A stretch of DNA of 63,085 bases, counting the filler, from Sanchytrium tribonematis (lineage: Eukaryota), in the NCBI GenBank assembly GCA_018985235.1. It is 14 parts of 14 records of this genome, joined end to end, with 100 filler letters (N's around TTAATTAATTAA, not from the genome) between each part and the next. Parts side by side here need not be neighbours in the genome. Positions count along the whole stretch, not along the records: positions 44,168 to 47,259 come from JADGIG010000912.1; 13 more parts are not named here. One strand, given 5' to 3'. Below are positions 3,241 through 62,533 of the stretch, piece after piece; within the stretch, counting starts at the first letter, position 1, and every line of letters begins with the position of its first letter. The translations under genes were made by a program, and so were the position numbers. The notes beneath the pieces were generated by a model that worked only from the letters and a program-made list of their open reading frames with translations, was not told where the DNA came from and did no database searches.

Positions 3241-3949
3241 CCTAAATTTCCTGGATCGGTGAGGATGTTGTTCTTAAAGAAAATCAAGCACTCTTTCATG
3301 CACCCACAATTTCAAACGGACGTTGTAAAACCACTTAAAATTGACCACCTTCTAGACAATGAAGTTCAAACTTTATCTGGAGGAGAACTACAAAGAGTTG
3401 CCATTATTTTATGTCTGGGTCAAAGCGCTGATATCGTACTTTTGATTAATTTAGTATTTAATTGACGAACCTTCGGCTTACTTAGATTCCGAGCAACGTA
3501 TTATTGCTGCTAAAGTTATTAAGCGTTTTATCATTCATTCTAGAAAAACTGCCTTTATTGTTGAACATGATTTTATCATGGCAACGTATTTAGCTGATAG
3601 TGTTATTGTCTATGATGGTTCTCCAGGTATTGATGCACATGCTAATACACCACAACCACTTTTATCGGGAATGAACGCGTTTTTGAAGACATTGGACATC
3701 ACTTTTAGACGTGATCCCACAAATTTCAGACCTAGAATCAACAAATACGAATCTCAATTAGACAAGCAACAAAAATTAAGTGGTAATTACTTCTTCTTAG
3801 AGGATACGCCTGATAATGCTCTTCAAAAGACCGGAAAGGGAATAACAGAAGAAACTGAGAAAAGGAAGAAGAAGCAAAAACAAAAGATTCAATCTAATGA
3901 AGACAAGGAAGTCAGCGAAGAGGATGATTCTGAAAATTCATCCGAATAA
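3241..3949 (+). CDS. RLI1: ABCE1/Rli1 ribosome-recycling ABC ATPase, C-terminal part; exons 3241-3435 and 3455-3949
   Basis: [11 protein letters not shown]...ADI joined to [25 protein letters not shown]...[13 protein letters not shown]...[16 protein letters not shown] once a 19-nt intron is removed. Confidence 0.95.
3436..3454 (+). other. 19-nt spliceosomal intron (phase 0) in RLI1
   Basis: GTACTTTTGATTAATTTAG. Removal restores the conserved Walker B region ADI|YLIDEP. Confidence 0.93.
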
Positions 3950-3982: not shown

Positions 3983-6365
3983 ATGAAATTCTGGCCAGAA
4001 GCGTTCGTCTTTATTTTCTTGATGGTGATGGCGTCTCTTTCACAGCAGAATTGGACCTTCATACTTTGCTATACCATTATTGTCCTTATGAAATTAGATG
4101 TTGTAAAATTTGATGAAAAAAGTGGCACAGAATTTCCAAGGATAATCAATTGCTTTTATTTGAGCAGCAAAATGAATGCTCAACCACCGCTTTATATGAT
4201 CCAAAATCAAAATATAACTTTGGAGTATGCAGAGTTTCCGCCTAGTAAGGTAGAAGTATCAGGTAAATTAACCGATAAGCCTAAATATTCTGACATGTTC
4301 GTCAATGCCAGAATTGCCGACCAGCCAAAAAACTGGTTGAATATAAGCAAACCAGAATCTGTATTAGAATCACTATACCGTCAATTTCAAAAATTTTATT
4401 GGAGCATGATTCTTTTTACATTGATTTTCAACATTGTATATGTTATTATAAAATCGTTACAGAATAACACAAGTATTATCGATAATATGTCAATTGCGGC
4501 TTGTTGCTTATTTTTATGTGTACCTTGGCACGTCTCACTAGTTCCTCTAATTAGCCATGGTGCAAGTACTTATCTCCACATAACCTGGCAAAAAGTTCAA
4601 TTGCTTCAAAAAAAGGAGCGAGAGTTTGACGAGGAATATCACAGGAAAATAACCTTGTCTTTGTGGAATGTTATCAAAAATTCATTTTCTAAACACCCTC
4701 GTCAACTAGTCGAAAGATTGGCAAACATTAGTATAATTGCAGCTTTAGATAAGACAGGAACCATTTCTCACAATCATCCTTCCATGTTTGAGTTGATATT
4801 ACCTCATGACCAAACTTTAGAAATTCAAACGTCTGAGTCAGGGGTTCGCTTCAGCAGTCCAGATTGGGAAAAATATACCAACAGTTTGCGCCCCATTGGA
4901 TTAATATTACTGATGAATACCAATTGTCATAAAACTTCGAATCTCCACTATAGGGAACTCAATTATAATGCTGCTAGTCATCAGGTTTCTTGTTATTGTA
5001 CTTTGGCTAAGGAAATAGGTTTTGATTCTAGCCATAATTTATCGGCGAGACAATACTTCGATCTTTTCATCACCCTTCAGGAAGACCACGCTCATTCGAG
5101 AGTTTATCAATACTCAAAAGGCAACGATCAAATAGTTATTGATGGCGATATCAATATAATTTTAAGCATGTGTTCCGATTACTGGGATGGGGAGGATATT
5201 TTCCCCATATCGGAAGCAATGAGAAAGAAATTTACAGATATTTATACAAACTGTAAAGCCAATGATATTGGTGCCATAGCATATGCCTATTCACCAGTAG
5301 ATCAAAATATATTAGATGCACTACAGCCACTTTTTGGCAAGAGCTACTTTTTATCCATGGAAACTGGTCTCTTTCCTCGAGAACAAGAGGCATTTGAAAA
5401 AATTATTCGCTCGAGACTTTTGTCTGGCTTAATTTTTCTAGGAATTTCTAAAATTTCACACAAACCAAAATCTCATGTGCGTGATTTAATTGAAGAGTTT
5501 AATCCATCCTCGATCCGATTTGTTTATTTTTCGCCAAAAGAAGAACGGCCTTCAAAAGCTTTTGCCGAGCGGCTGGGACTTGAAACCGATTGGAACTCAT
5601 ACTTATTACTTTCAAATCCCGAGGAGACAAATGTCGGATACCAAGAAGAACACGACATCAAAGCACAATTACCGCGCGGTATTGCAGCAATCAAAGAGCA
5701 TTTGCGAAACGTCGATGATATACCATTACATGTTTCTTTATTCGCAGAAGCCAGTCCAACATCTATAACAGAAATGCTTGGTATTTTTCAGTATTGGGGA
5801 GAAAGTGTTGCTGTGCTAGGGTCTTGTTTAAATTCACGTTTTTTGCCATGCTTCGCTGCCGCTGATATCTCAGTTGGACTTGTTCCAAGAAGCATCGATT
5901 TAAATTCGGAAGAAGGGAAATTGATTATGCACAGCAATCATTTTGTAGATTTGTTTCTGTCATATGATGCGAGTCTGTTTGCTCTTTATGACGTAATTAA
6001 AGATGCAAGAACTATTTCATCTAATTTACAAATGTTTGTAATTTATGGTTTTTTAATTCAATTAAATATGCTCTGTTCCGCACTCATCATACAGTGCTCA
6101 GACTATCAGTACCGCTTTACGCTGAATTCGTTGGTACCGATCAACATAATTATAATTCTGCAGTCTCTAGCATTTTTGTCTCTGGAAAATGAGAATTCTA
6201 TGAAATTGTATATGAGGAGAAATAAAAAGCAACGAAAAGAAGTTGCCAGCCTTCTACTAGCAGTTATACCTCGTAGTCTGGTTTTTTTAATATTCGATTT
6301 AATTAATTACATAATGTACTGGTCACTAATTTAGGTCCTTTCAGTATTTAAACAGTCACATTTTA
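3983..6365 (+). CDS. TMEM94: TMEM94-like P-type ATPase-related protein, 3' partial; exons 3983-6315 and 6335 to contig end
   Basis: LANISIIAALDKTGT, SLRPIGL, CSDYWDGEDIFPI, IRFVYFS, KAFAERLGLETDWN, KAQLPRGI..IKEHL.NVDDIPL.VSLF are TMEM94-family blocks. Confidence 0.85.
6316..6334 (+). other. 19-nt intron (phase 2) in the TMEM94-like gene
   Basis: GTACTGGTCACTAATTTAG matches the consensus. Removal eliminates the apparent TAG stop and leaves the frame open to the contig end. Confidence 0.75.
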
Positions 6366-9739: not shown

Positions 9740-12700
9740 TCAATTTTTATTCAACTGGGATAAAAGAAGATTTTGGAGCTCTTCAAGAATAGATGCTTCA
9801 ATTTTAGGGAATAGGTAATTTTTGTTTAGCAATGCATAGCGAGGATGTAAACCAAAGTAATAAGAATCTTGCTTAAATTCGTAAATATACCTAGAAGCCA
9901 TCGATATCGGAATTTTAATACCTTCAGCATAAAGACTCTCAAAAACACTGTCACAATTTGCCTGACTATATTCTTGATTTAAGGCAAGCACTTTGTGTAC
10001 CCATGTATCTCCATTGATTTGCCCTTCTAGCTGCTTTTCAAATGGGTCCTCAGTTTTAATATTATGTAGAAAAAAAGTTAATAATACGTAATATGTGGCA
10101 TAAGTTCCAAATGTGTTATTAATTAAGCTGTATTTTATGGAATCTTGCAAAGACGGAAATCCATTTTTTAATAAAATTTGTAGAGCTTTCAGTAAAGCTT
10201 CCAAATTTTCTGGGTAAATAGTTTCAAGAGAATGACATTTCCAACCAATCGATCTTAACAAGGTTAGTGTGAAAAGATTTAAGACGTCTACTTTTCGCTC
10301 AGTGTACTCAGTATTCACAAACTCCATTATCTCTGCGGGCTTTCTTTTTCTGATAAGTTCTGAGAAGCAGTTCATGTTGTGCTCCAAATCAGTACTTTCC
10401 AAACAGTTTTCTATTTGTATTCTAAATGGGTTGATATTTTGAAATTCTTTTAGTATTTTCTTGTCCAAAATTTGATCGTTCTGCAAATACAAACGACTCT
10501 TTAAGCTGAGATTATAAATTTCATCAAAATACGATTGCTTTTTATAGTTTTGATTAGGGATAATAATGCTATCATTTGATGAGTTTTTGGGAAATTTTTT
10601 GAGAATATAACTTGAATCCATTCCATGCAATTTGCATATGATGGGCACCAGCGATTGGTGCTCATTTAAAACTGAAATAGTTTTATCTTCATCATAGTTA
10701 AGCAGAACTAGAAGGTCTGAGAAAGAAATTTGAAGTTTTCTTGATTGACTGAGTACTTCTAGCAGGTCTAAAATCAATTCTTGGCCCGTACAATTCATTA
10801 ATTTTTCACTATATTAATGCAAACTACTATTTTGTCCAGACTAACTCTGGCATTTGAAATAAGCTATAAATGTTATTCAAAACAATTTGCTTAAGGGAAA
10901 CTAGTTCCGTGGCCTGCAAAAATTTAACCAAATATTGAGAATATTGCAAATGAAATTTGTTTCTACAAAATGGGACTAAACTCAGTTGTACAATTGATAT
11001 TTTAAAAAATTGCATACTATTAAGAAAAGATTGCTTTTGTGAATGTAAATTTTCAATTTTAGAGTACAGCTGAAGCAAAAAATTGTAGTCACTCTCTTGA
11101 AGGTCTTTGAGAAAATAGTTTTTAAGCTCTGGTAAAATGCGTTGGATCATTTTAAAAGGATCTTCGATTAATTTAGATTTTAAATGCACATGATGATGTA
11201 ACAACATCAAAATTTCTAGAAATTGATATTTTGGCTCACTTTTATAAATAGCGAATAATGGCTCCAAGTAAAAATTACTTAGCTGGTCAAGACTAAGTTC
11301 ACTGCAGCGCTTATAAATGTTTGGAGCTAAAATTTTCGGGTCAATCGTAGTTGCAATTCTTGCAAATATCTCGGGGCTAAAGGGTACACATTTAACGACT
11401 TGGATCACTTCTTCAGTATTTAATTCCTTCAAAATATCTTCAAATAGAGGTTCTTGGATTTTGACTATTCCAATTGCCAGAAGTTCAATGTCTGACATTT
11501 TCAACAAATCTCGAGAAGTCTCATTAACACTCAAGGCAAAGTCTAAAAAAATACCATTTTGAGTTTGATTCAAAACATGCTTGAGTTCAGTTGTTGGAAA
11601 TTTAGACGAAAAACAAGCTTCAGCGCACTTTACTTCTTGAGATATTGGCAACAAGTTTCTAGTATCTTCGGAGCTAAAACTTAACTTGAAAATATCCACC
11701 GCGAAATTATATGCAGATACTTGCTGGGTTAAAGAGAAATAGGTCATCAACTCCTCGATTGAATATGAGCGAAATACACTGAAATATAGCGAAAAGTCAC
11801 TTGAATCATTTAAAAATTCAAGTGGGTCATAAATATGATTCAAAGGAATTTTTGGAATGTTCGTCTTTAAAAATTTTAGCCTTTTTTGAGAGTCTAATAA
11901 TATGGATTCAAACTTATCAACATAAATTTCATTCGTATTCAAAAGCTCTAGACCATATTTAATAAGTAATAAACATGATTCTAATGAATTTGGGACTCTC
12001 TGAATGGAAGACTGCAGTCTATATTCAATATCATCAATATTTGACAATAGTTGCGTGATACTTAATTCTGTGACGGCTGTTTGTTGCCATTGGACTTTCA
12101 ACACCTCACTTTGACTGATTCCCAATTGCTCTGCCATTTTTAAAGCCTCTCCATAATTTTTCGAAGATAATAATGACTCGTATATTTTATATGGGGTAGT
12201 CATCCCAACATCATAGATCTCATTTTCGTGTGTATAAATGTCATCGCGACTATTATCATCAAATTGCCATAGTAAAATAGAAATGATATATTCAAAAATG
12301 TAAAATATTAAATTATACAGCGTGGTTTCTTCTTCCACAGACTTTAAAATAGAATGGGAATTCCAAAAATATAAGTTTTTTCCAGATAAGAATTTTTCAC
12401 CATTGAGCTCGATATTGCTAATAAAATCTATCTCTTCAAAATTTTCATCAAGCATTACCAATGGGCTAGAATCGTTATAGTTTAAAAATTTTGAATCAAT
12501 GGGAAATAGTTGAGAATACTTTAATTTTAATTTTTGTTCGCCTTTAGACACAAATTCATTAACACAAAAATATCCATCACCTATAGACGAACTCATAGAA
12601 TTTGTTGGAATGCTCAATATATTTAATGGATCCAAGTGATATGGATACTCTAATATCAAATTGTGCATATTTTTGATATCTAATTGCAAAATTTCACTGT

Positions 12701-19833: not shown

Positions 19834-21100
19834 TTATGCTGTAATAATATCTCCAAAATTATCTTCTTGATGAAGATCAAAATTTGAGCTAAGCAAATTC
19901 ACAAAGGCACTGGCTGCCTGAAAGCGAGAAAAGTTCTTTGTTCTTTCAAAAAAGGAATCACCTTTACACCAATTTAAATTTTCTTTTGTCAAAGGAACAG
20001 TCATCAAAGGGTTATCTAGAGCAGTCTTATTTTCCAAATTAGCCGTACCTATTTCAAAAGCATCTATTACAGAGCTTGAAATTGGCTCTGCAAAGTCGAA
20101 TTGCTCTTCAAATGCAGGCAATTCAATTGAATTTTCTGATTTTTGGTGTGCATCTGTCAAAAATTCCTCAATCTGGCGATACGGTCGATGGGTCATATTT
20201 TGACCAAATTTTTTCAAATTTAACAATTCCATACTTTGATCGATGTTAAGTGGATCAAAAAGTGAGACTTCTGCACCTAGATCTATAGTGACAATTTTTT
20301 CAATGATTTTATCAAAATATTTCCTGCCTACCGATCCGCTTTGCTTCGAAATGGTTCTTTTTCTTTTCTTGTATTTTTTAGAGTTGCTAAATTAGAAAGA
20401 AAAACCTATCAATATTTTTTAAAAAATTGTTCGACTTGAGGTCGTCTGGAATCCCAGATATTTTGGAGATCTCAAGTTGCAAATCTGGCAATGATTCTTG
20501 AGTAGATTTTAGCTCGGAGTGAGCCCTTTCTTCAGAGAGAAGTTGTTGCTCCAGGTCCAAAGGAATGGGTAATATACTGTTGTCCGGCAAATCGAAGACT
20601 GGTAACGCTTCTCCCACTGAACCTCGTCTTCCAACTTCGATCGAGTCGTCGTTTTTGGTATTTCCTAGACTCAAATCAAAATTTAACTGCTCGTCATTCA
20701 AGTCAATACCTCGATTAATTTCAATACTGGGTAAGGATTTTGCAGACAAGCTAATAGATTCTAGCAGCTGGTCGTCATCTATTTGGAGTTGACCCTCGCT
20801 TAAATCAAAATCAAGTTGAGGCATATGTTTTTCCTTTTTTCTTTTACCAAACATACTACGATCGGTAGCTACTGTACAATCATTCAGCAAAAATGCAGCT
20901 TGTTTTTCGTATAATTTATGTAAGCCCAAAAGTAAATATGCGCTAAGTCTTAGCGCAAATGATCCCGAAATAATATCTTTACATGCGGTATCAATATCGC
21001 AATGTACCGCTTCTTTCTTTTTGATCGATTTTGTGTTGTGAGCGGCTAACCAAATTAGCGAAAGCGAGCCATCGCCAATTAGATGGCTGGTATAAAACAT
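19834..21100 (-). CDS. RAD21: Alpha-kleisin cohesin subunit (Rad21/Mcd1/Rec8 family), 415 aa; exons 21100-20406 and 20386-19834
   Basis: N-terminal MFY...LSLIWLAAH...ALRLSAYLLLGL and C-terminal SRFQAASAFVNLL...HQEDNFGDII, joined in frame by a 19-nt intron. Rad21 versus Rec8 is not resolved. Confidence 0.85.
20387..20405 (-). other. 19-nt intron (phase 2) in the kleisin gene
   Basis: GTTTTTCTTTCTAATTTAG. Removal opens 51 further codons that run in frame into the C-terminal ORF. Confidence 0.88.
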
Positions 21101-28928: not shown

Positions 28929-30279
28929 TTATTTATCTTCATCTGTTTTCAGTTGAACCTGAATACCAGCCTTGTTCAACCTCTCAAATAAGACAAAAAG
29001 TTTTTCAGCTTCGATTTCCTTTTCCTCGTCAGTCATTTCACTTATAAAAGAATCTCGCTCTTTCTGTCCAGTTACAAAGTTCCATTCTCCATGCGTTTCT
29101 TTACTATATTTCTCTTGAAGTTGTGAAGATAAGAGCCCATGGTTAACTAAATACCCCATTACTATACCCAAACCGGTATAATTAACCATTTCCTCAACTT
29201 TATAAAAAACAATTACCTTGCTGATCGAATAAAGAAAAAACTAGTTCTTGAATTCGTTCACTTGTGAATGCAGTCATCGGAGGTGGCCTTACCTGTCCCT
29301 CGCTGATAAGCCCTACTTCTTCTTTCGTAATTCCTAGACCTGCAGTTGCAGAGAATGCACTTATAAGCCTGTGAGGCAAAGATATGCCAGCTCCCAAAAC
29401 TTCTGCTCGATCAACGTCATCTGGCAAAAGCTTTTCCTTTAAATATATTCTCCATGGCTTTTGTTTTCCCAATGAGCTTATTTTGAATTCTAAAGTACAC
29501 ATCCAAGTGAACAGATAAGCAATAATTCCAAAAACAGTGCCAGTCACTTCATTGTCATGAGTAAATTTGGTGTCCAAATAATTAATTAGGAAGTCGATTA
29601 ATATTTTGTCCTTCTTTTCAACATAAACATTCTCATATAATGCAACTCCATTTTCAATCGACATAACACTTTCAAGCTCACTCGCCAAAAAATCTTTAAA
29701 ATGAAGTAACGCATTTAAAGCGTGACTAGTGTGGGTTTCATTCAAAACTAAGCGCCTTAACTTTTCATATAACTTGGGTATAGATATGTTTTTAGATTCA
29801 AAGAGTTTGCCCCGTTCTTTATCATTAGTTTGTACAAGATCGTAAAAATTAAGAAGATTATAGAGACACTTTAAGCATTCGTCAAGAACGTCATCCTTAT
29901 CACAATCAAGTGATTCATAGATTTTCTCAACCAAAGCAACTCCGTATAACCGAATTCTTTCATGGTATTCTGTAGTAGCCAAAAAGAAAATTCTAAATAT
30001 CACAAACAAATGATCTGAATGAAGCTGATCTACGACTTTGAGATCAATTTTTTCCGCATAGTATGTATGAGATCCATATAATTTGAGGGTATTAGCAACA
30101 CATTTCAACTCATCTAATTTGCTGAGATCTAGTTGTGACAAGTAAGGACTCATATCAAATATTCGGGATATTGCGAGTAATTGATCAGATCTCTTTTCTT
30201 TAAAAAACAAGGTGACATACTTTTCAACTTCCGAAGATTCAAGAGAATTAATGTCTATGTTAATATCTAAATTTGACAT
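28929..30279 (-). CDS. RIC8: Ric8/synembryn G-alpha GEF and chaperone, 443 aa; exons 30279-29217 and 29197-28929
   Basis: ECLKCLYNL, LKEKLLP..VDR..VLG, ELVFSLFDQQ|VEEMVNYTGLG..MGYL, NFVTGQ, EMTDEEKEIEAEKLFVLFERL. Confidence 0.92.
29198..29216 (-). other. 19-nt intron (phase 1) in RIC8
   Basis: GTAATTGTTTTTTATAAAG. Removal joins the two Ric8 halves in frame. Confidence 0.88.
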
Positions 30280-31227: not shown

Positions 31228-31360
31228 TAGATTAAAACAATAAATTTGTTTTCACTTGTNNNNNNNNNNNNNNNNNNNNNNNNNNNNNNNNNNNNNNNNN
31301 NNNTTAATTAATTAANNNNNNNNNNNNNNNNNNNNNNNNNNNNNNNNNNNNNNNNNNNNA

Positions 31361-34300: not shown

Positions 34301-34471
34301 GTAAATGTAGAGAGAAGTGAATTAGAACAAAGTAGAGCTGAATTGACAAAACAACAAAATGAATTTAGGATCAAATTATTGGAGTTAGAAAATAATCTAT
34401 TAAATAAATTAAGCAGTGCCCAAGGCAACTTTTTAGGTGATACGACATTGGTAGAGAATCTAGAGATCACT
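31361..34471 (+). CDS. Axonemal dynein heavy chain, internal fragment (outer-arm beta, DNAH9/11/17-like)
   Basis: AMNPTSGNFTI, FLPTAVKFHYIFNMRELSNVFQG, AAA4 P-loop LVGVGGSGKQSLSRLA, stalk with DRSWKASK, FIDPQLQ, HYTPEIQAQT. Confidence 0.95.
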
Positions 34472-34973: not shown

Positions 34974-36500
34974 TTATTCTTCCAATTTCCGCTTGCTATT
35001 GCCATGAATCCCTTCTGAATACGCTTCTTTCATACGTACTTTATTTTCATTGCTGGCTTCTTTATGATCTACCACTGGATTTGGATATTTGCAATCTGAT
35101 CCGTCTCCAATCAAGCAATTCCATTTCTTCTGCAAGTCTTTAGGTGCCATCCATGGATTATAAATATATTTAGCATTATAATCTTTTAATTGTGGCAAAT
35201 ATTTCTTGATAAATTCACCATTTTTATCATATTTTTGACCAAATGTAATTGGAGAATACACTCGGAAATACGCACTAAAATAAGCAGATGCACTCAACCA
35301 CATCCAATTTCCACCATTCATTGCAAAATCATGATCTACTAGCCACTTTTGGAATACTTTTAAACCGCCCTCCCAATTTTGATAGAGATCTCCTCGTGTC
35401 AAAAAACACGCTACAGAATGTCGTGCCAAATGATGAATCCACCCTTCAGTACGTAATTGAATCATAATAGCATCAATCCATGGAAATCCAGTTTGCCCAT
35501 TCGTCCATTTATCCAAATATTCCTGATTATCATCCCATTTAATTTGCAAACAAATTGGATTATCCTTCATTTTGTTATAATTTGGAATGGCATATGCTTG
35601 AGAATGAAAGAAATCCCTCCATAATAATTGCCCAATTAAACTCACAGGTGGTTTTGAATGATTTGAGTGATTTTCTAATATATCATTGACTTGCCAGTAA
35701 AATTGACGCACACTGAGAGATCCCCATGTTAAATGTGGGCTCAATATAGTAGTAGACGCATCTTTAATAAATCTAGCTGGACTCGTTTTGGGTTTCTCGA
35801 AATTGGCAACTTGTTTTTGATCTTTGCAATATTTGGTTAATTGCTCTAATGCCAGTGATTCTCCACCATGTAAAGATGTTGTAGGAGTTTCTTTAGTAAA
35901 TTCATCAATATTAAATAATGAAAAATCATGTTTTGGACCACTAAATGGCTTTGTTTTTTCATTTTTCAATAATTTGTCCATTTCTTGTGGTAATTGAGGA
36001 ATATTTGGAATTGGCAATGGATGGTCTGGAACGGGTAATTTATTCACTATAGAGCAAAATGATGCATATGTTTTTGGTAAATGCCCATTAAATTGAATTA
36101 CTTCTGCTGGTTTGTATAATAATCTGCCATGTGTCTCAATCACTTGAATATCCATTGATTTGCAAATATTAATGATTTTCAAGTCTCTATCACGCCCATG
36201 CATCTCAGATAACCCATCAAATGCCAAATGAGTGATTTGCCATTCTTTTAAAATGCATTTCAAGACATCTATCGCATCACCACGTGCTATAAATAACTTG
36301 GATTTGGATTTCTCTAATTGCTCATCCAAATTCTGTAAACATTCCTGTAAAAATTGCCATCTATTTGGCCCAATAGTAGTATGTTTACTCTGATGAACAA
36401 TATATAAAGGAATGACTTGTTCTGCTTGTTTAATTTGATGTAAAATCAGATTATCATGAAGTCCTAAATCACGACGAAGCCAATAAAGCACCCGTTTCAT
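34974..36500 (-). CDS. (6-4) photolyase / animal-type cryptochrome family protein
   Basis: WLRRDLGLHDN, LSPHLTWGSLS, SLIGQLLWRDFF, TGFPWIDAIM.QL..EGWIHHLARHSVACFLTRGDL, GNWMWLS. Confidence 0.95.
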   Translation of the reverse strand: MKRVLYWLRRDLGLHDNLILHQIKQAEQVIPLYIVHQSKHTTIGPNRWQFLQECLQNLDEQLEKSKSKLFIARGDAIDVLKCILKEWQITHLAFDGLSEMHGRDRDLKIINICKSMDIQVIETHGRLLYKPAEVIQFNGHLPKTYASFCSIVNKLPVPDHPLPIPNIPQLPQEMDKLLKNEKTKPFSGPKHDFSLFNIDEFTKETPTTSLHGGESLALEQLTKYCKDQKQVANFEKPKTSPARFIKDASTTILSPHLTWGSLSVRQFYWQVNDILENHSNHSKPPVSLIGQLLWRDFFHSQAYAIPNYNKMKDNPICLQIKWDDNQEYLDKWTNGQTGFPWIDAIMIQLRTEGWIHHLARHSVACFLTRGDLYQNWEGGLKVFQKWLVDHDFAMNGGNWMWLSASAYFSAYFRVYSPITFGQKYDKNGEFIKKYLPQLKDYNAKYIYNPWMAPKDLQKKWNCLIGDGSDCKYPNPVVDHKEASNENKVRMKEAYSEGIHGNSKRKLEE

Positions 36501-36596
36501 CCCAAATGCATTTTAGAGATGATTTTAAATCAATCATCGGCATGCATTCACGGGGTAAATTCATTCATCGACTATTTATTAATTACACATTGAGTG

Positions 36597-38398: not shown

Positions 38399-38836
38399 TT
38401 ATTCTTGACATTCATCTGCATAGTGTCCATCTTGGTTACATCGATAACAAACAATAATTCTTTTACCGTTTGCATACGTTTTGGCTATACAGCTTCCAAT
38501 AAAATGACCAATTCTAAAACATCTCAAACAAGCATCTTGGGATGCTGCAATTTCTCTAAAGATTGCTAATTCGCTTGAAACGGGTAGTTCTATTTGAACA
38601 TAAGCACCTCCTCTGACATTTTCAATACCAAAGTCTCTCATGTACTTTTTAACCATGAAATCCTCATACAATTCATCTACGTTTTCAACTGTTTCTATTG
38701 TTTCTAATGGCTTGTATAACATTGTCCACTCGCATCCTTGGGTATTAAAATGTTGTTCAATTCGTTTTTCTAAATTCTTTGTCTTGCCAACGTAGTATTT
38801 ATCTTGATCAAGTTTCAATACGTATACGCTGGTCAT
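38399..38836 (-). CDS. GIY-YIG nuclease-domain protein with CCHC zinc knuckles
   Basis: VYVLKL..DKYYVGKT.NLEKRIEQH, KKYM..FGIENVRGG.Y, then CLRCFRIGHFIGSC and CYRCNQDGHYADEC. Confidence 0.88.
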   Translation of the reverse strand: MTSVYVLKLDQDKYYVGKTKNLEKRIEQHFNTQGCEWTMLYKPLETIETVENVDELYEDFMVKKYMRDFGIENVRGGAYVQIELPVSSELAIFREIAASQDACLRCFRIGHFIGSCIAKTYANGKRIIVCYRCNQDGHYADECQE

Positions 38837-38954
38837 TGGAATCTTCCCGTGTTTTGAAATGCTTAACTTCTTTTAAGCCCTATCCAGTGGCTTAACGTTG
38901 GAAGAAGAATACAAAGAATGAATCCAAGGAGGATATATTGAGACTGATAAAAAG

Positions 38955-44167: not shown

Positions 44168-45599
44168 CAAGTATGAGTGAACCAGCATTTCAGGTTCTGG
44201 AGTAGACTCTTGCGATTCTCCAATCAATAGCGATATATCCTGATCGATGTCACAACTGTTGTTCTCAGACTCGTAAAATTCATGAACTTCAGTAATAGTG
44301 CTTTTGGAAATATCGGTCAAGTCCAACAGTGTATTTTCTGGCAAACGATTTTCTACATTATTTGAATATTTAGAACTATTGCTATAAAATGAGGTAATCT
44401 TAAGATCCCTTGATGACGTTCTTTTAAATTCAGATGGATAAGTGTTTGTTTTGGCTGTTGAGTATTTTGCAATCAAGTCTTGAAAGCTTCTTTTTTGAGG
44501 AACAGCGTGAGAGGCACTTTTGGGGCTGACCAATCGAGACAAAGTGCTTTGACTAAGAGTTGAAGCATCATCTAGTACGTTGACCTTAAAAGGTCTTGAT
44601 TTTTCAACAAACTTAATTTTGTTTTCTAGTAGAGTTGATATTATGTTTAATACTTTGTCTTCACAAGATATAATCACTTCCTTTTTACTAGGATGTACGT
44701 TAACGTCTACAACCTGAGGCTTAATTTGAAGACTCAAATAACAAAAAGGTAATTTTCCTTTTGGCAAATAACTTTCAAACATCCCGATAACAACCCTCTT
44801 AATACTAGTGGAATTTACTAATCGATTGTTAATAAACAATATAAACGGAACCTGAGAGGTTTGAATGGAAAGCATTGGGTGTGATGAAATGAAAATAATA
44901 CTCTTTACAATATCATGATTATTCAGAGGAGCGATAACTAACTCATCTACTTCTTTATCTTCTACGTGTTCTTCACCACTATGATAGAGTGCAATAAATT
45001 CTTCAAATTTACAAATTGATTGTATTCTTGAAAATCTTGATGGCTTGTTCGCATTAAATATGGGACCTTTGTGTTTAATTCCTTTTTTCAAACTGAAATT
45101 GATTTTGGGATATTCCACGGAATAGCTTTGAACCATTTTCAGACAAGAATTGTATTCGGCACTTGCAGATCTTAACCCTGACTTTCTATTTGGCAAATTG
45201 TAAAATAAGTCCTGACATATTATAGTAGTGCCAGTATTCATTGCCTTTGGGACGCAACTAACCAAATTATAATCCGAGTACTCGCATAAATTACCAACGG
45301 TATCATGCTCGTATTTTGTTTGTATTTTCAACTTACTGACACAAGAGACAGCACTTAGGGCCTCACCTCGAAAACCAAACGAAGATATGCTGAGAAGGTC
45401 CTCATATTTAGTGATTTTGGAGGTTGTAAACCTGTTGCACAAAATTTTTAAATCTTCCTTCAAGAGATATTTCCAATTTTGTACAGCCAGCATCTATGCT
45501 ATTTTCAATGAGTTCCTTAATAACACCAGTTGCACATACAATAACTTCTCCAGCACTAATTTTTCTCTGGGTTTCCTGATCAAGAAGCTGAATTCGCAT
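44168..45599 (-). pseudogene. MLH1: MLH1 mismatch-repair gene, 3' partial, with an internal frameshifting deletion (pseudogene or assembly/amplification artefact)
   Basis: KISAGEVI..KELIENSIDAG lies in one frame and EDLKILCNRFTTSK..SFGFRGEAL..DVNVHPSK in another. The intervening DNGxG motif is absent and there is no GT-AG intron at the junction. Confidence 0.75.
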
Positions 45600-45746
45600 T
45601 TTCTGGAACAAAGGAGCACACCTGTTCTAAATTTAATGTTATACATCAATAACCGCCAAATTAGAATAAAATGAAACTATAAGAACATGAACAAAGTTTA
45701 TTTGAAAGTCTAAATGAATCTGAAACAACTATATTAAAGCCATTTG

Positions 45747-46461
45747 ATGAAAATTAAAAATTTCTTATTTGGTTTGATAACAGCTGCCATACTGTTCATA
45801 ATTATCTTCGCTACTCACAAAGATGATGTTATACGAATTTTGACAGATTTTAAATTATGGTTACGCGAACATCCTGCTGGTCCAATATTGGTGTTTTTCT
45901 TAATAAGTCTAACAGCATGTCCTCCCACTCCTGGATATTCTACTCTAGTAATATTTACAGGGTTTGTTTATGGCATGAATGGCTGGTTCATTGCTTCTAG
46001 CGCTGCTGTTTTTGGAGCTAGTTGTGTATTTATAATTACGAGAAAATTTAAGATAGGTTTTACAATGGATAGAAATTGGTTAACAATCTCTAAGGTTGTA
46101 GAAAAAAAAGGACTTTGGTTTGTGCTGCTTTTAAGGCTTGCACCAAGTCCATTTAATTTGTCTAATGTTATCTTTGCAATTACTAAAGTGAAATATACCA
46201 CGTTTGCTCTTGCCACGGCCATATCTACGCTCAAGTTGCTTATGCATGTATATCTAGGTAAAACCATCTAACTAAGGCGCGTGTATGGGAGCTCATTTTG
46301 AAATCAAATCCGAGGGATCATTATTATTTGTAAGCATAGCATTTTTTATTGTGGCAAGCGCAGTCTGCTACAAAACTGTTCAGAATGAACTCATCAAAGA
46401 AAACGCATTAGGAGAAGAGGAGCTGTTAAGTGTACCAGCAAAAGGGGTCGATATTGCCTGA
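45747..46461 (+). CDS. TVP38: Tvp38/TMEM64 (DedA/VTT family) membrane protein, 231 aa; exons 45747-46257 and 46277-46461
   Basis: PP.PGYS, GFVYG..GW, LLRLAPSPFNLSN, KLLMHVYLG. The spliced exon adds a final TM helix and ends in TGA followed by AATAAA. Confidence 0.85.
46258..46276 (+). other. 19-nt intron (phase 1) in TVP38
   Basis: GTAAAACCATCTAACTAAG, with a canonical CTAAC branch motif at positions 11-15. Confidence 0.88.
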
Positions 46462-50699: not shown

Positions 50700-52181
50700 C
50701 ATTTAATAGACACATACCTTTGCTTTTGTTGTGTCAATGGAATTATCCCGATCGAATGGACAGATTCCTCAATTATCGAAATCTTCAAAAATAAGGGGAG
50801 CATTGAAAATCCCATGTTCTACAGGCCAATAAGTCTAAATTGTGTTCTCAGAAAACTTTATGAGAAGCTACTTTATTATTAACTTCTAAAAAATGAGTTG
50901 ATACCATCATACAGGCAACATGGCTTTGCTTTTAGTCGCGGAACTCTTACACAATTGCATTTAGCTTTAAATTTAATGGGTGGTAAAAATGGCAATTTTT
51001 ATATGGGATCTGTAGATTTGAGCAGTGCATTTGACACTGTGAACTGGAATGACATTGAAAAATCTACCCAAAATAATTTAAAACCATGGGATTTAAATGC
51101 ATTAAGATCACTGATTGTGAATCAATCACTACATTTAAAACGTGATTCAAATAAAACGCAAGTAAAATTAAAACAAGGTGTACCTCAAGGAGGGACCTTA
51201 TCGCCTTTATTTTTTTCTTTTATCGTTGACAAAATCATTTCCGAGCTGGAATTTGATGAAAATTGACTCAATTTTTGCTTATATGCTGATGATATTTTTG
51301 TAATTTCAAACTATAAAGAGTATTTACAGGAAATACTTGTCAAATTGACAGATTTATTAATGCGGCATTCATTTAAAGCCAATCCACAAAAGTACCAAGT
51401 TGTGGCATCTGAAAAGGTAGAAATTGTAATACAAAATCAAACCCTTCAACAATGTAACTTTATGCGATATCTTGGCGTTCATATTAACAAAGATGGCATT
51501 GATTATGAGCAAGAAATCAAACACAAACAAAACAAAATTAAAATGGTTCAAGCCAAATTGAATAACGGATGTGCCAAAAAGCTCTTTCAAGGAAAATCAC
51601 TATTTGTAAAAGACATAATTGATACCATTTTATCGTATGGATTGTCTCTATGGACTCCAAAAGAATTAGACAAACTGGAGAAATTAAGAAAATACACCAT
51701 TAATAAATTATTTGGAAATACTAGACTAATACATAAATACCTCTGTGGTTTTTTAAATGCTATCGAATTATATCAACGAGCAAGAATTAGTCATGAAAAT
51801 CAAATAAAAAACATCATTTTTACTTTGGAACAGCAAGATACGCCCCAAAATTACTTAGAATTGCTTAAACGTGATACATCAATGGCCTGCAATATTAATG
51901 ACTATATCCCTCTTGATACAGGGACTTCAAATGAGCTGATGGAGAGAAATGAAGAGAGATTGAAGGAGATGTGGAACACAAATCCGGCGGAAAGAGGGAG
52001 TAGATTGGATACTGAGAGCAATCTAATGAAACTACTGAAGAGCAACAAGTATACCAGAGTGTATACTCATCATGTTTTAAGACTGGGACTGCTTTTTATG
52101 GGAATTATCCCATATAAAACATACAAAACGCGATCCCTCCGATTTGCTATTTCAAAAAGAAACACGCGAAAGCATCAATAA
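50700..52181 (+). mobile_element. Decayed non-LTR (LINE) retrotransposon reverse transcriptase
   Basis: One frame carries P.EW..S.I..IFK.KG...YRPISL, QHGF, DLSSAFD, GVPQGGTLSPLFF, YADD and RYLG. In-frame stops are TAA 50880-50882 and TGA 51264-51266. Confidence 0.9.
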
Positions 52182-54405: not shown

Positions 54406-56338
54406 ATGTCAACAGATCACACCAAATTCATTTTAATCACAGGTGGCGTATTAAGTGGCATTGGTAAAGGTGTCATTGCTTCATCTACTGGATTCTTATT
54501 GAAAACATACGGATTGCGAGTCACAGCCATTAAAATTGACCCATATTTAAATATCGATGCTGGCACATTATCTCCATTAGATCACGGTGAAGTATTCGTA
54601 TTGGATGATGGTGGAGAAGTCGATTTAGATTTAGGGAATTATGAGAGATTTCTAGATGTGACATTAACAAGAGATAATAATATCACAACTGGTAAAGTAT
54701 ACAGAAAAGTGATTGAAAAAGAACGTAAAGGGGATTATTTGGGCAAGACTGTGCAGATTATCCCACATGTCACAGATGAAATACAAAATTGGATTTTAAA
54801 TATTGCCAGTAAATTGGTATCTGATCATATTCCAGATATTTGTATGATTGAATTGGGTGGGACTGTAGGTGACATTGAATCTGCACCTTTTATTGAAGCC
54901 ATGCGTCAATTTCAATTCAAAGTAGGTCCTACTCGATTTTGTTGCATTCACGTGTCTTTAATTCCTGTTGTAGGTGCTGTTGGGGAACAAAAGAGTAAGC
55001 CGACTCAAGCTAGTGTCAAATCATTGCGTGGATTGGGTTTATCTCCTGATATTTTAGCATGTCGATCTGCCAATCCATTAGATGAGACTGTGAAACAGAA
55101 ATTGGCGATGTTTTGCCATACGCCAGTAGAGAATGTTATTGGCGTACATGACTGTGCGAGTGTCTATCATGTGCCTATTTTATTAAAGAATCAAGGATTG
55201 TTGACTATTTTAGAGCGTAAATTGAATTTATTGCCATTGGTGGAACATCGTAGAAGTATTGAAGGGACTCAATTTGTAGACCATGAGAGTAGTTCATTAT
55301 GGATCAGATGGCATAAAATGGCCATGAGACAATCTCATTTACAGAATAGTGTTGAAATTGCATTGGTTGGCAAATATACGACTTTGCATGATTCATATGC
55401 AAGTGTGTTGAAATCATTGCAACATGCTGCATTGAGTTGCAATTTAAAGTGTAGTGTGAAGTGGATTGAATCAGATGATTTAGAATTACAAACAAAGATA
55501 GATTCTCCTAAAAAGTATCACGCTGCATGGCAATCCCTAGTAGATGCAAATGGAGTCTTAATCCCTGGTGGATTTGGTGTGCGTGGTACGGAAGGGATGG
55601 TAGAAGCAGCTAAATGGGCAAGAATCAATAAGAAACCATTTCTTGGGATTTGTTTGGGATTACAAATTGCAACAATCGAATATTCCAGAAATGTTTTAAA
55701 ATTAGAAAATGCAAATAGTGAAGAATTGAATGAGAATGCGCCTCATAAAGTAGTCGTATTCATGCCAGAAACATCAAAAACACAATTAGGTGGTACCATG
55801 AGATTGGGAAATCGTAAAACATTATTTCAAAATGCAAATTGGTCCATTATTCGTATTTCCAACTCATTTAGATGCATTATATGACCATAAACCAGAGATA
55901 TTTGAAAGGCATCGACATCGGTATGAAGTCAATCCTGAAATTGTAAATGATTTAGAAGCAAATGGCATGATTTTTGTAGGAAGAGACGAAACAGGCAAAA
56001 GAATGGAAATTATGGAATTAAAACATGATCCAGTAGATCAATGGGAAATGATAGACGGTAAAATGCAACCAAAAGAGGGTCACCCATATTATGTCGGATG
56101 TCAATTTCATCCAGAATATTTGACGCGTCCCCTTGTCCCATCTCCTCCATTTTTGGGATTGATTTTAGCGAGTGCTGGATTAACCCATCAATGGTTTGAA
56201 GCTAAAAAGAATCATATTGGTGAATATGGATCAGATTCTACTTCTGATTTAGAAGAATCTCCAATCATGTTAAACAAAGACCCCTATACGATTCATCCGA
56301 TTAGAGGCACCCAAATGGAAGTGAAGAAGGATTATTAA
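54406..56338 (+). CDS. URA7: CTP synthase, 637 aa; exons 54406-55852 and 55872-56338
   Basis: [56 protein letters not shown]...[16 protein letters not shown]. Confidence 0.97.
55853..55871 (+). other. 19-nt intron (phase 1) in CTP synthase
   Basis: GTATTTCCAACTCATTTAG. Removal restores the conserved WS..x.LY...ERHRHRYE spacing. Confidence 0.93.
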
Positions 56339-56894: not shown

Positions 56895-59655
56895 TTATTG
56901 ATTTATAATTTCTAGCAGCAGACTGGAAATATTGGCAGTAAGGTCGCCATGAGTACATTTGACTGCAATTTTAAGTGACTAAATAAGTTAAAATTACTTT
57001 TTGATTCAAAATAAGTTTTAAAAGAATACCAATTCTTAAGTTGGCACAATTAACGATGGAAGCGCCTGTAAACACGTTTTGATTCAAGAGATCTGAATTG
57101 ATAGTTGAAAATTTGAGTGCTGTAACTTTTTGGATAAGTGATTTAATATCTCCAAAATAGTTGGTGTCCATGATGAAACTTTGGTTTGGCGCAACTAATT
57201 TTAGTGCTCTCTGGTTGTAGTCAACATCTGATAATTGTAGAGCAGTTTGAAATCTAAATAAATGAACTGGGAGTTTTGTTGAGATTTCCACCTCACCAAT
57301 GTTGTTTCGATATGAGATTGTCATTTGTGGAATTGCGTAAAAGACATTCAAGGCCTGAAAATCTAGAACATGTCGCATTTGGGATCCAGCAGGTAATAAA
57401 TTTGGAAATTGTTCTTTAACTTTAATTGTCAACCCTTCCACATTTGTAATGTCGATTACAAAGTTATTGTAATTTGAACTTGATTTGTTACCGATATATA
57501 AGGAAAGACCACCAAATGCATTCTCATATTGAGATTTAATTCCGAGCTGAAGTTCTTGATCTTCATATAACAATCCTTCTCCATTTACAAGCAAATTGGT
57601 GAGCAACTTATTGTCAACTACCTTGTTGACTTTTTGAGGGACAGATTTTGTTATTGAGCCATTTGAAAATCCAAAAAGATCATCGAGATTGCTTGAAGGC
57701 CTTTGTGTTCCAACAGAATTTGGCGCAGGTGTAGGTTCACCAAACAAATCCAGCAAATCATTTTTTGGCTCGGGTTTTTTGGCTTGAGGTAAGTCTCTAT
57801 TAATTGTTTGAACTGTAATTTCTGCAGGAGTTGACTTTGTTAAACTTCTGGCAAGATTGTCGGTAGTCAGATTAAACTCTGGCATTTCATCGCACACTAC
57901 TTGGAGCATATCCCTATTTTCTGGCTGAAGTAATTCATAGTATTCGCACGATCTTTGTTGAATTTCAACATCCAAATCCTGCATGTGATTTTTAAAAATA
58001 TTTTGAATGACTGAGGTAGTTTGAGGAAACAAATTAGCTACTTTCAAATAAGCAGTGAACATAATAACTTTAGTGGAGTTTGGAGATATCTCAAAATTTT
58101 TATGGATTAAATTCAATTGCTCGTTTGGAAAATAGCCAGGTTTGTCTGCCAACAAATGACCATATTCACCAATGATATAAGCACAAACTTTTAAGAGACT
58201 ATCAGAAACCTCGTCTCTTTGTAGACAATCGATGCAGTGTCTCACTGCAAATTCCTGTATATCAAGATTATTGACTGCAATATGGATAGCTTTAAACCAA
58301 ACATCATTGGCCACATCATCTCCTCCAATGTCTATTAAACTGAAAACAGTTGTAAAATACCAACTGATATCTTTAGCAAAATTTTCAGCCAAGATGGCTA
58401 TTTTTAGAATGAGTTCGCCTTTAAATTCTTCTTCTGTCACATTTAAATGATTTAGTAGCTCCAACACGATAACATCATAGTTTCCGCTATCACATATAGC
58501 AAATAATAAATCGACTGCTTCTTTCTTAACGGATGTATCTGTGTCTCTTAACAATTCAATTATAAGTTCCTTGTGCTTTTTTATTCGGTTCAAGCAGTGC
58601 TCAATCTTAGTTAATTTGGTTAAATTTTCAAGTGCTAAATATCTTGAATTAGTTTCATTAGATACTAAAAATCCATGAAGGACGTCAATTGCGCTGTCAA
58701 GCATTTCAGAATCTGGCATGATATCTGAAATCAAAGAAATTGCAGTTAGAAATATCGCGTTGGAGGTATTGTTTGATTGTTGGTTTTTCTGAATTACTTT
58801 ATGGCTTCTAATAATCTCGGTTAAGATTGATTGTAATTTTGACAAATTGAAATTTCGATTGCTTGGACATAGTTTTCGTAAAAGATCTAATAATTTAATT
58901 TGTAACCAAGGTGCAGGAATTTTGTAATATAAATAGTCAGCAGGACAGATTTTTTCGAGTACAATATCGGCTAACCGATCAATAAAGACATTTGCACTTT
59001 GTAAAAATTCATGTCGGAATTCGTTGCAAAGTTCGTCCACAAAACTGCTGATTGCCATCAATATTCCTATGTCAGAAACACGCAATAGTTCCTTAATCTG
59101 AGGAATCCATTCTCGAATAGGCACGCAGCTCGGATATTGCCTGTAGAGGCTCAATGCAGTCAGGGCAGCCTTTTTCTTTACAAAATCACTAGATCCTTTG
59201 TTATAAATCACCTTCCACACATCAACAATTGCTGCCTCTGTAAGCTCTAATCCACCGATATTTGCAATGCATTGTAAAGCCAAACTAGTGAAATGCATAT
59301 TTGAATCGTTCAGATCTTTTTTGAGCTGATTAATAATTAAACGAACTAATTCTGGAGAGTTTTGTAATAATAATGATGCTGCTAAATATCCCAATTGCTT
59401 TTCCGAAAACTTAGTGCTCCCACAAAGCCCAACAGCTTCTGCATGACCAAAATCGATGTCATATCCTAGTAGATATATAAATAAGATTTTAGATACATAT
59501 TTCTTTTTCTGATAAGAGTTCAAAGATCCACCTTTGAATTTCTGACGAATATTGGTCAGTTCCTTATTAACGCGCTTCTCCTCTTCGTCATGAGAATGGC
59601 AAGCTCTAATATCACCAATAAATTGTTGAAGTCCTCTCATTTCATTCGAAATCAT
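56895..59655 (-). CDS. AP2A: AP-2 adaptor alpha subunit, 913 aa; exons 59655-56998 and 56978-56895
   Basis: MRGLQQFIGDIR, EEEKRVNKEL.NIR.KF, FSEKQLGY, PAPWLQIKLL, DVEIQQRSCEY. The last exon completes the appendage domain (SLKIAVKCTHGDLTANISSLLLEII). Confidence 0.96.
56979..56997 (-). other. 19-nt intron (phase 0) in AP-2 alpha
   Basis: GTAATTTTAACTTATTTAG. The 27-aa terminal exon ends in CAA TAA ATAA, with AATAAA over the stop. Confidence 0.88.
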
Positions 59656-60519: not shown

Positions 60520-60558
60520 TAAACGAATTTGGTTTTTATCTTCTCTTATATTTGAAAC

Positions 60559-62533
60559 ATGGATCTCATATTGAAATTAAAAAAGGACTTCGATGAGAAC
60601 ATATCAATTTTTGAATTATATGGAGAATATAAAGGCCCTGATTTTCTTAAATTGTTTAACAGAATACTGAAGAAGTTGGTGCTAAAGGCCAAGGATATGA
60701 CCTCTAATGGCCTTTATGTAGAAACGCATTACGATTATTTAAAAGATGAATCAGACATAAATTCAAATTCCGCGCATATAGTGGATGTCTTGGGTGGTGT
60801 ACTGCAGATGCCAATTTCCCATGAGGAGGCAACTGAATTGCAGACTAATTTACTCATAACATCCGATAAAGAGAAGCTTAATGAAGCATTGAGATTTCTA
60901 TTATCAGACCCAGCCGAACATTCGAAAAAACTATATTTGGGAGCCTATTTAGTCCCTGTCGATGTACCACCAGAATTTAAGTCTTTGGGAGTGATTCAAC
61001 AATTGCAAACTCAACTAAATCAATTAACAGAAGATTTTGTCACTATTCACAGAGAATACTCGCAGAAACACAATGATTTAGAAGTTTTAAAGCAATTGGA
61101 AATCTTGACCACGCAAAAAGAAGATGATAAAAGGGTTTTACAACAGCAAATTAAGGTTTTAGAGACTAAGTATGATAAATCTTCAGAGTCAGATTCTTGG
61201 CTAGAACTTTGCAAAGCCTACCATCGAGAAAATCAATTATTTATAGAGGCAAAAGCGAAAATTCAGGAACTTCAAAATATTCAAATCCGGGAGTGCGATT
61301 TTAATAAAGAAAAAAAGGACTCTGAAAAATTTAATGCAGAGAAGCGATTAGCTTCTCCAATATCAGAAATTTTAAATGAAATGGAGAACGAATTGCACAA
61401 AGCCGAATATTTTTTACAATCTTCTCAAAAAGATTATGAATTTCAATCGAAAGTTCTTAGCACATTGCAGCAATCACTAGGTAAAAACATCACTAGATCA
61501 GATGTTATAGGCGTCGAAGATTCTATTTCAAGACTTAACGGTGATTTGAATGAGGCTACGCAGACGCTGTTATCGAATGGGTATATTTTGCTTACTTAGG
61601 TTTACTGATAAGAAAATTTCCGAGCAGCAGTATATTGGCCTTAGCAACAAAAAGCAGCAGCTTATCGAATTAATCAAGTCTGTAGAAAAAGATGAAATTG
61701 AGATTCAAGAGTCACTTGACCATTTCAAAGAATTAAGAACTCAATACAAATCTAGAAAACAAGAAATCAATAGTTTGGAAGCGGAAAAGGCTATGCTGTT
61801 AGAAAATATGTCCAAGTTGAAATTAAATTTTGGTGAGAAGCTGAGTGCTGTTACTCAAAAGGAACAAAAGGCAGGGATAGTCGGCTTTTCCAGGATGAAG
61901 GATGAGCTTATGAAGCTTTCCAATACAAAATCGAATTTAGACAGTGTTAAGATGAACACACTAGAAGAAGTATCAGTCTTAGTTAAAGAGATTAACACCA
62001 AAATTAATGAAAAAAAATCTATAATTGGCCCAAAGTCCAGCCAACTCAAAAAATTAAGAAACAAAATTGCAAAACAAGAAGAAATTATAAATGAAAAACA
62101 ATTTGCTTATGATGCAAAAATACTTAATATAAAAAAGGAAGTTGAAGAATTATCTAAGTCCAACACTCTTCTTCAAGAGAACATTATTCAAAAAGAAGAT
62201 CGGCGTGAAGAACTTGAGGATCTAGTTGAAGTTGCTAAGGAACATCTAAATTTGCTTCAAGAAGAGAAAAAAAAGTATTCCAGCAAAAGTGAAGAATCAC
62301 TTGGAACTATTAAAGAGAAATTAAAAAGAAAATTGTATGAGCTGGAGACAAAATATGGTGATCTTTCTGAGGAGGAAACTAATTTGAGAAGTGCAATTGA
62401 ACCCAACAAAAAAATGATTGCCTCTTTCGAGATTATAAACAAAATATTAGAACAGAAAAAGATGGACAATGATGATTCTTTGAATGCTTCATTAGAAGAC
62501 GCCAAGAATTTGGAAAATAGAATGATATTATGA
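60559..62533 (+). CDS. IFT81: Intraflagellar transport protein IFT81, 651 aa; exons 60559-61580 and 61600-62533
   Basis: KKLYLGAYLVPVDVPPEF, EQKAGIVGF...LSNTKSNLD..KMNTLEEVS.LV.EI..KINEKKS, C-terminal ENRMIL. Confidence 0.88.
61581..61599 (+). other. 19-nt intron (phase 2) in IFT81
   Basis: GTATATTTTGCTTACTTAG. Removal fuses the two IFT81 halves in frame (SN-G-FTDKK). Confidence 0.9.

Follow-up and report, generated by a model that had tools for sequence, protein, structure and literature searches.

Candidate 19-nt introns with a putative branch site fused to the acceptor in the sanchytrid Sanchytrium tribonematis

A TVP38-family gene of Sanchytrium tribonematis is broken at 46258..46276 by a GT-AG segment of only 19 nt. 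Is this segment a spliceosomal intron and, if so, has the spliceosome that removes it been remodelled? An earlier note on this DNA argued for remodelling, from a branch A fixed at +14, the lack of G at +5 and the lack of a pyrimidine tract. We analysed the whole stretch of DNA containing the gene (63,085 nt, from here on the window). It consists of 14 contigs, mostly of ~3.1 kb, with ~33% GC and a gene-dense sequence holding 44 open frames of at least 150 codons; recognised genes include dynein heavy chain, IFT81, ABCE1, CTP synthase, AP-2 alpha, Ric8, Rad21 and MLH1. The contigs are joined by 13 linkers (3141 to 60030; N44, a 12-nt all-frame stop and N44), and contigs adjoining across them are not real neighbours. 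Sanchytrids are a fungal group of algal parasites. The nearest named relative was Amoeboradix gromovi (78% CTP synthase identity), and in a CTP synthase tree (a single gene, 26 of 120 matches listed) the window protein, A. gromovi and one further protein grouped together (100/100), with Blastocladiomycota adjoining (89/78). This grouping indicates that the window organism is a sanchytrid.

The features of the TVP38-family gene are as follows.

45747..46257, plus strand: exon 1, 170 codons; PF09335 match, relatives ~80% identical
46258..46276, plus strand: candidate intron of the TVP38/TMEM64 (VTT domain) gene, 19-nt GT-AG, phase 1
46268..46276, plus strand: putative fused branch-site/acceptor element of 9 nt, with an A column invariant in 9/9 introns
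46277..46461, plus strand: exon 2; the spliced product has 231 aa and no internal stop

The intron carries C11-T12-A13-A14-C15 and ends in TAAG, and its branch A is predicted at 46271 (+14, which is -6 from the 3' end). A contig of DNA run X1 spans the segment with zero differences inside it. A protein search returned the window's own TVP38 protein and four relatives at ~80%; three relatives terminate at the intron site, 3-5 residues beyond the same Gly. The A. gromovi protein (P0126) shifts frame ~28 codons before the junction. When the tail was decoded in that frame, a 22-nt intron emerged with a score of 145 (runner-up length, 35; 300 shuffled tails, mean 45, maximum 73). In the decoded protein, 33 residues match the spliced TVP38 of the window, five of them beyond the junction, and the site equivalent to 46258 has GA instead of GT. 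As A. gromovi has GA there and reads on like exon 2 of the window, it is without the 46258 intron, and the joint is confirmed. An intron gain or loss within sanchytrids is also apparent at this gene: P0126 lacks the 46258 intron and has its own 22-nt intron ~28 codons upstream, which is absent from the window.

Eight further candidate introns of the same length were located in the window.

3436..3454, plus strand: ABCE1/Rli1 intron, 19 nt, phase 0; the exon junction corresponds to yeast Rli1 residues 488 / 489
6316..6334, plus strand: intron of a membrane-protein gene, 19 nt, phase 2, after 777 codons; placed by motif and frame only
10809..10827, minus strand: intron joining frames of 843 and 356 codons, 19 nt, phase 2; placed by motif, frame join and coding score
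20387..20405, minus strand: intron of a Rad21/Rec8-family gene, 19 nt, phase 2; the sole intron with T at +3
29198..29216, minus strand: Ric8 intron, 19 nt, phase 1; both exons match PF10165, in order
55853..55871, plus strand: CTP synthase intron, 19 nt, phase 1
56979..56997, minus strand: AP-2 alpha adaptin intron, 19 nt, phase 0
61581..61599, plus strand: IFT81 intron, 19 nt, phase 2; homology supports the exon order only

The column counts given for the nine introns proved exact: A at +3 in 8/9, T (7) or A (2) at +5, Y11, T12, A14 and Y15 in 9/9, and an acceptor of TAG in seven and AAG in two. These counts are partly circular, since the earlier note had supplied the pattern, and the junctions were therefore tested independently of the motif. 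Homology without the motif placed five of the nine: ABCE1 exactly, the TVP38-family gene via its intron-less relative, and three (CTP synthase, AP-2 alpha, Ric8) as the best joint. In CTP synthase the 19-nt joint was the best of 27 against 117 homologues (260, next 237, unspliced 110), and in AP-2 alpha the best of 26 against 116 (44, next 36, unspliced 33). In Ric8 it was the best of 44 against one full-length homologue (207, unspliced 98), where it narrowly beat a 13-nt alternative (202). Two CTP synthase relatives terminate at the intron site, three AP-2 alpha relatives terminate at theirs or just beyond it, and the Ric8 relative P0247 terminates at its own site too. A junction test against P0128 was uninformative, because the P0128 protein is itself unspliced. 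The two IFT81 exons align in order with a single IFT81 chain, covering its residues 85-322 and 402-579.

Three of the nine introns (6316, 10809 and 20387) were placed by the motif and frame joining only. The gene at 6316..6334, which we take to be TMEM94-like, had no match in a Pfam search, and its exon 2 is truncated where the contig ends. At 10809..10827, presumably a Sec39/NBAS-like gene, the family search gave no match confirming the joint. At 20387..20405, exon 1 matches Rad21 and a family search with exon 2 gave no match. Contigs of run X1 span both of these last two introns, and four of the nine introns in all are spanned unaltered; X1 is possibly the source sample, hence not independent support. 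One X1 contig matches exactly up to the Rad21 donor at 20405 and then diverges, as if a near-identical intron lay elsewhere; the match table holding this case also has other short chance matches.

The pattern GT-N8-YTHAY-WWAG occurs 10 times in the window at 19 nt, against 2.1 ± 1.5 expected from 30 order-3 Markov simulations, and 0-5 times at every remaining length between 14 and 40 nt (26 lengths). Nine of the ten matches join open frames; the tenth (61978-61996, minus strand) lies antisense inside IFT81. A weight-matrix scan over 14-40 nt gave 10 GT matches at 19 nt and 0-3 elsewhere, no second length class, no credible intron in a 5' coding region and, for GC donors, scattered matches only; such a scan could miss UTR introns, as well as 3n introns that contain no stop and have weak motifs. 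A motif-free search for frame-joining introns was noisy: it displayed five of the nine 19-nt joints, did not list the other four and produced no convincing alternative length. In metagenome scans, the TVP38 alignment yielded 203 pattern matches and zero relatives, and the ABCE1 acceptor pattern yielded no matches. Each of the nine introns, if retained, would bring a stop codon no more than 32 nt from the donor. Judged from sequence, the 19-nt GT-AG segments in these nine genes are very likely introns.

We regard it as extremely unlikely that the segments are not spliceosomal, that is, assembly errors, frameshifted pseudogenes or sequences excised at the DNA level or by some non-spliceosomal route. 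One assembly error is indeed present in the window, where 44 nt of MLH1 have collapsed. Against such an origin stand the GT-AG ends, the branch-type motif and the single length shared by nine unrelated and partly essential genes, the four introns carried unaltered by DNA contigs (possibly of the source sample) and the spliceosome annotated in A. gromovi. Moreover, relatives have intron positions in common with the window and keep them with different sequences.

Public sanchytrid ORF calls are unspliced, so the C-terminal tails of the relatives' proteins are intron read-throughs. We back-translated ten such tails, leaving out P0121, which duplicates the P0002 tail, and obtained intron lengths. 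In seven of the ten, every one of the nine positions in the 3' element is satisfied at a length of 19-22 nt (chance ~2% each): P0002, P0123, P0124 and P0247 at 20 nt, P0128 and P0130 at 19 nt, and P0126 at 22 nt. The four 20-nt cases assume a TAG stop codon, which is invisible in the protein; the two 19-nt cases are also fixed by exon 2 decoding. In P0003 and P0125 the four testable positions fit at 19 nt (chance 9-13%). The P0129 tail fails the strict element and fits a relaxed pattern only, at 21 or 26 nt. These lengths go against a branch A fixed at +14: introns of 19, 20 and 22 nt carry the same 3' element, so that what stays constant is the distance of the A from the 3' end (-6), and +14 follows from the length in this species. 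What stands of that proposal is the fusion of branch site and acceptor in one 9-nt element and, for the window species, the predicted lariat loop of 14 nt. With a total length that varies (19, 20 or 22 nt) and a branch-to-end distance that does not, two constraints can be told apart, the donor-to-branch loop and the branch-to-acceptor spacing. The public proteins P0001-P0003, P0122-P0130 and P0247 are truncated or frameshifted at unspliced introns, and gene-loss counts for the sanchytrid phylum may therefore be inflated.

The lack of G at +5 had been read as exclusion. The P0124 donor, however, has G at +5, because its first read-through residue is Met. In the window, 0/9 introns have G5 (P 0.19-0.35 from composition alone) and 0/9 have CAG (P 0.19-0.25), so both absences fit composition and the positions look released, not counter-selected. 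All nine are 19 nt long, with T at +6 in 7/9 and a mixed +4; the T at +5 and +6 is near the intron background, and with canonical U1 the donors could form 4-7 of 8 pairs. A G5 donor is not obligatory, as the accessible parts of the accounts of Stentor (PMC9505925) and myxozoans (PMC13644364) illustrate. As for the pyrimidine tract, there is indeed no room for one between branch and AG; upstream of the predicted branch site, on the other hand, lies a U-rich stretch (52% T at positions +4 to +10). Most fungi are described, in the excerpt available to us, as having no 3' pyrimidine tract (PMC2483917).

Potential pairing with U2 GUAGUA amounts to 4-5 of 6 pairs per intron, with G-U counted. The conserved Y11, T12, A14 and Y15 form the pattern expected from this pairing, which argues for an unchanged U2. 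The concern that U1 and U2 would be crowded is fair, the two pairing regions (-2 to +6 and +9 to +15) being only two bases apart; they do not overlap, however.

This closeness gives some weight to an alternative that we consider unlikely: that the introns are real and the snRNAs co-evolved with them, either through U1 and/or U6 altered for U at +5 or through a U1 stripped of U1C and Prp39, with Slu7 and Prp18 lost. The canonical G at +5 is replaced throughout, U stands at +5 and at +6 in 7/9 each, and compensating U1 changes occur in Entamoeba and Mastigamoeba (bioRxiv 10.1101/2022.06.08.495308, as excerpted). In intron interiors of 52% T, however, T in 7/9 has P ~0.11, and one relative has G5. 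According to the same excerpt, compensating U1 changes are real but rare, and U1 is unchanged in 69/69 Saccharomycotina candidates, Thecamonas and Mamiellales despite atypical donors. The 15-nt introns of Stentor without G5 likewise run on canonical U1 and U6 in the available account (PMC9505925).

An Rfam scan of the window gave 0 matches at E up to 1, with no snRNA there, and a domain search found no spliceosomal protein genes in it. The protein inventory is that of a relative and not of the window species, taken from the available part of the A. gromovi eggNOG sheet (PMC8371127, supplement 4; 3,755 rows). It lists U2AF1 (E 7e-57), U2AF2, SF1 (as two adjacent ORFs), U1-70K, U1A/U2B'' (twice), Prp8, Prp40, Prp17, Prp22, Luc7, SF3B1, Brr2, SNRNP40, cactin, Cwc25 and Isy1. 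U1-70K is also among the 171 rows listed of the S. tribonematis sheet. In the 3,755 A. gromovi rows, Slu7, Prp18, U1C and Prp39 had no entry by KOG or KEGG id, and Slu7, Prp18 and Yju2 had none by name.

The predicted loss of U2AF is thus contradicted, U2AF1, U2AF2 and SF1 all being in the A. gromovi annotation. The expectation that a fixed branch-acceptor spacing goes with U2AF loss is also the reverse of what is reported for yeasts, in which U2AF1 accompanies a tightly constrained branch-to-3' distance (PMC8496845, excerpt). A stripped U1 sits poorly with an annotation that, as far as it is available, holds U1-70K, U1A/U2B'', Luc7 and Prp40, although the unlisted U1C and Prp39 could mean more change in U1 than assumed. 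Loss of Slu7 and Prp18 is possible, neither being in the sheet; according to the accessible text of PMC10158995, Slu7 is not needed if the branch lies 9 nt or less from the 3' site.

Absence from this sheet is weak evidence, with about half of the proteins annotated and the ORFs called unspliced. A spliceosome that is fully canonical, Slu7 and Prp18 included, with both missed through fast evolution and fragmented gene calls, is nevertheless very unlikely in our estimation. Annotation did cover 3,838 of 7,220 proteins (BUSCO 92%), the ORFs came from TransDecoder on genomic contigs without splicing (PMC8371127), and SF1 itself is split over two ORFs. The similarly divergent Cwc25, Isy1 and Prp17, however, did get annotated, and the joint absence of both partners parallels Stentor and Cyanidioschyzon.

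On balance we think it probable, from the comparisons above, that the 19-nt segments are sanchytrid U2-type introns recognised mainly from the 3' end, with the A at -6 fused to the AG, and are removed by a conventional spliceosome that is modestly reduced. In its favour are the length-specific motif excess, the junction tests, the placement beside A. gromovi, the relatives' tails, the branch pattern suited to a canonical U2, the A. gromovi annotation and the parallel with Stentor. Of the remodelled spliceosome, then, the arguments from U2AF, G5 and +14 fell, and the loss of Slu7 and Prp18 is still plausible.

In the mechanism that we propose, SF1 and U2AF would hold the fused element and U2 would then bind, so that intron definition would start at the 3' end, with U2 GUAGUA pairing to +9 to +15 and bulging A14. 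The donor would have worn down to GTA with a weak U at +5/+6, since in an intron of so short and nearly fixed a length there is just one GT within reach. That GT would be attacked by A14, giving a loop of 14 nt here and of 14-17 nt in the relatives, and the AG five bases downstream would dock without Slu7 or Prp18. With branch and AG so close, these two factors would be dispensable and may be lost. For U1 and U6 we predict pairing sequences of the usual kind. Binding of U1 and U2/SF3b to 19 nt would probably be sequential, not simultaneous.

We compared this arrangement with the closest known intron systems, as described in the available portions of the papers cited. Stentor coeruleus resembles the window in its near-uniform length (15-16 nt there), an A at -6, a GUA donor and a commonest intron without G5, and resembles A. 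gromovi in keeping U2AF1/2 and SF1 with Slu7 and Prp18 undetected (PMC9505925). Its U1, U2 and U6 motifs are canonical; it differs in being a ciliate with a 10-11-nt loop, no strong branch consensus and a 5' positional bias (PMC9505925). The sanchytrid window, in contrast, has a clear YTHAY, 19 nt, a predicted 14-nt loop and a 3' positional bias.

In Encephalitozoon cuniculi the branch motif reportedly abuts the AG. This organism is also an intron-poor parasite belonging to the fungal lineage, with a TAAYTT/CTAAYTT branch motif that resembles the 3' element of the window (PMC2483917) and a stop or frame shift in every intron (PMC2483917, PMC3629993). Its introns differ in their variable length (22-76 nt; PMC3629993), a strict GTAAGT-type donor and, at first annotation, a location mostly in ribosomal-protein genes; ~30 spliceosomal proteins are reported, with U1 snRNA not found (PMC2483917, PMC3629993). 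The window, by comparison, has a uniform length and a weak donor, and U1 proteins are in the A. gromovi annotation. The sole ribosomal-protein gene recognised in the window (P1, 19303-19626) has no intron.

Yarrowia lipolytica shares the missing 3' pyrimidine tract and a branch motif 2 nt before the AG with the A at -6, and differs in its long introns (median 204 nt) and strong donor (PMC2483917). Myxobolid myxozoans and dicyemids, opisthokont parasites with a GTa donor, have a canonical U2 branch-pairing region and keep both U2AF subunits; they differ in a median of 22-27 nt and in a weak A stretch that recedes from the AG with length (PMC13644364), whereas the sanchytrid A remains at -6. A very narrow ultrashort class also occurs in Mikrocytos (16-17 nt; PMC10245619) and in the Bigelowiella nucleomorph (18-21 nt; PMC6009652); the introns there are as short or shorter, but neither lineage belongs to the opisthokonts. 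The Mikrocytos spliceosome has 17-19 proteins, with U2, U4 and U6 alone found (PMC10245619), and in the Bigelowiella nucleomorph no branch A is discernible (PMC6009652). The recurrence of -6 in Stentor, Yarrowia and sanchytrids suggests a physical floor.

We found no prior description of sanchytrid introns in the openly accessible literature; neither the main text of PMC8371127 nor PMC10459994 contains an intron analysis. A length of 19 nt is shorter than the typical length that we found reported for any fungus or animal. Each feature listed has a precedent, and as far as searched the lineage, the 19-nt fungal class and the combination are new. A fungal phylum thereby joins the few lineages whose spliceosomal introns approach the minimum size, and a clear branch motif coincides with a fairly complete spliceosome annotated in a relative.

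The positions of the introns along the CDS are 0.52, 0.56, 0.70, 0.74, 0.76, 0.80 and 0.97, with ABCE1 at ~0.75 in yeast numbering. Thus all eight measurable introns lie in the 3' half (one-sided P 0.004), a bias noticed post hoc in a single window; the ninth (6316) comes after 777 codons in a gene that runs off its contig. Introns of intron-poor fungi lie nearer the start codon according to the part of PMC8476143 available, and the 3' bias, if genome-wide, would not fit this usual pattern. A bolder reading of all these data seems doubtful to us. Under it, sanchytrids would have the shortest introns of the opisthokonts (19-22 nt, species-tuned) and a spliceosome that has shed Slu7, Prp18 and part of U1 (U1C, Prp39) and defines introns by a length ruler together with one 3' element bound by U2/U2AF, U1 or U6 perhaps being re-paired to U at +5; retention or gain of introns would be confined to the 3' halves of genes, contrary to the pattern in other intron-poor fungi.

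Several minor observations concern the rest of the window. MLH1 (minus strand) has a frameshift at 45459-45462 with a missing ATPase-lid segment. An intron reading was rejected; the frameshift most likely reflects the assembly collapse, because an X1 contig carries 44 more bases that would restore the frame. In the short gap upstream of MLH1 lies a GT-AG segment of 20 nt whose 3' element is good (45710-45729, minus strand), possibly a 5' UTR intron or a chance match. Run X1 shows short bubbles with two versions ~4-5% apart at comparable depth (44231-44357, 45528-45733, 47003-47066, 11579-11692 and 12132-12246), and the sample is heterozygous or of mixed strains. A reverse-transcriptase (RVT_1) frame at 50883-52181 (plus strand), with one in-frame stop at 51264-51266, is probably a decayed retroelement. 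A small GIY-YIG nuclease with zinc knuckles lies at 38399-38872 (minus strand), on a contig with few recognisable genes. A dynein heavy chain fragment (31360-34471), intron-free along its 3.1 kb, and a divergent IFT81 (60556-62533, plus strand) are both retained; sanchytrid flagella are reported to be non-motile. A photolyase/cryptochrome family gene is present at 34974-36512 (minus strand).
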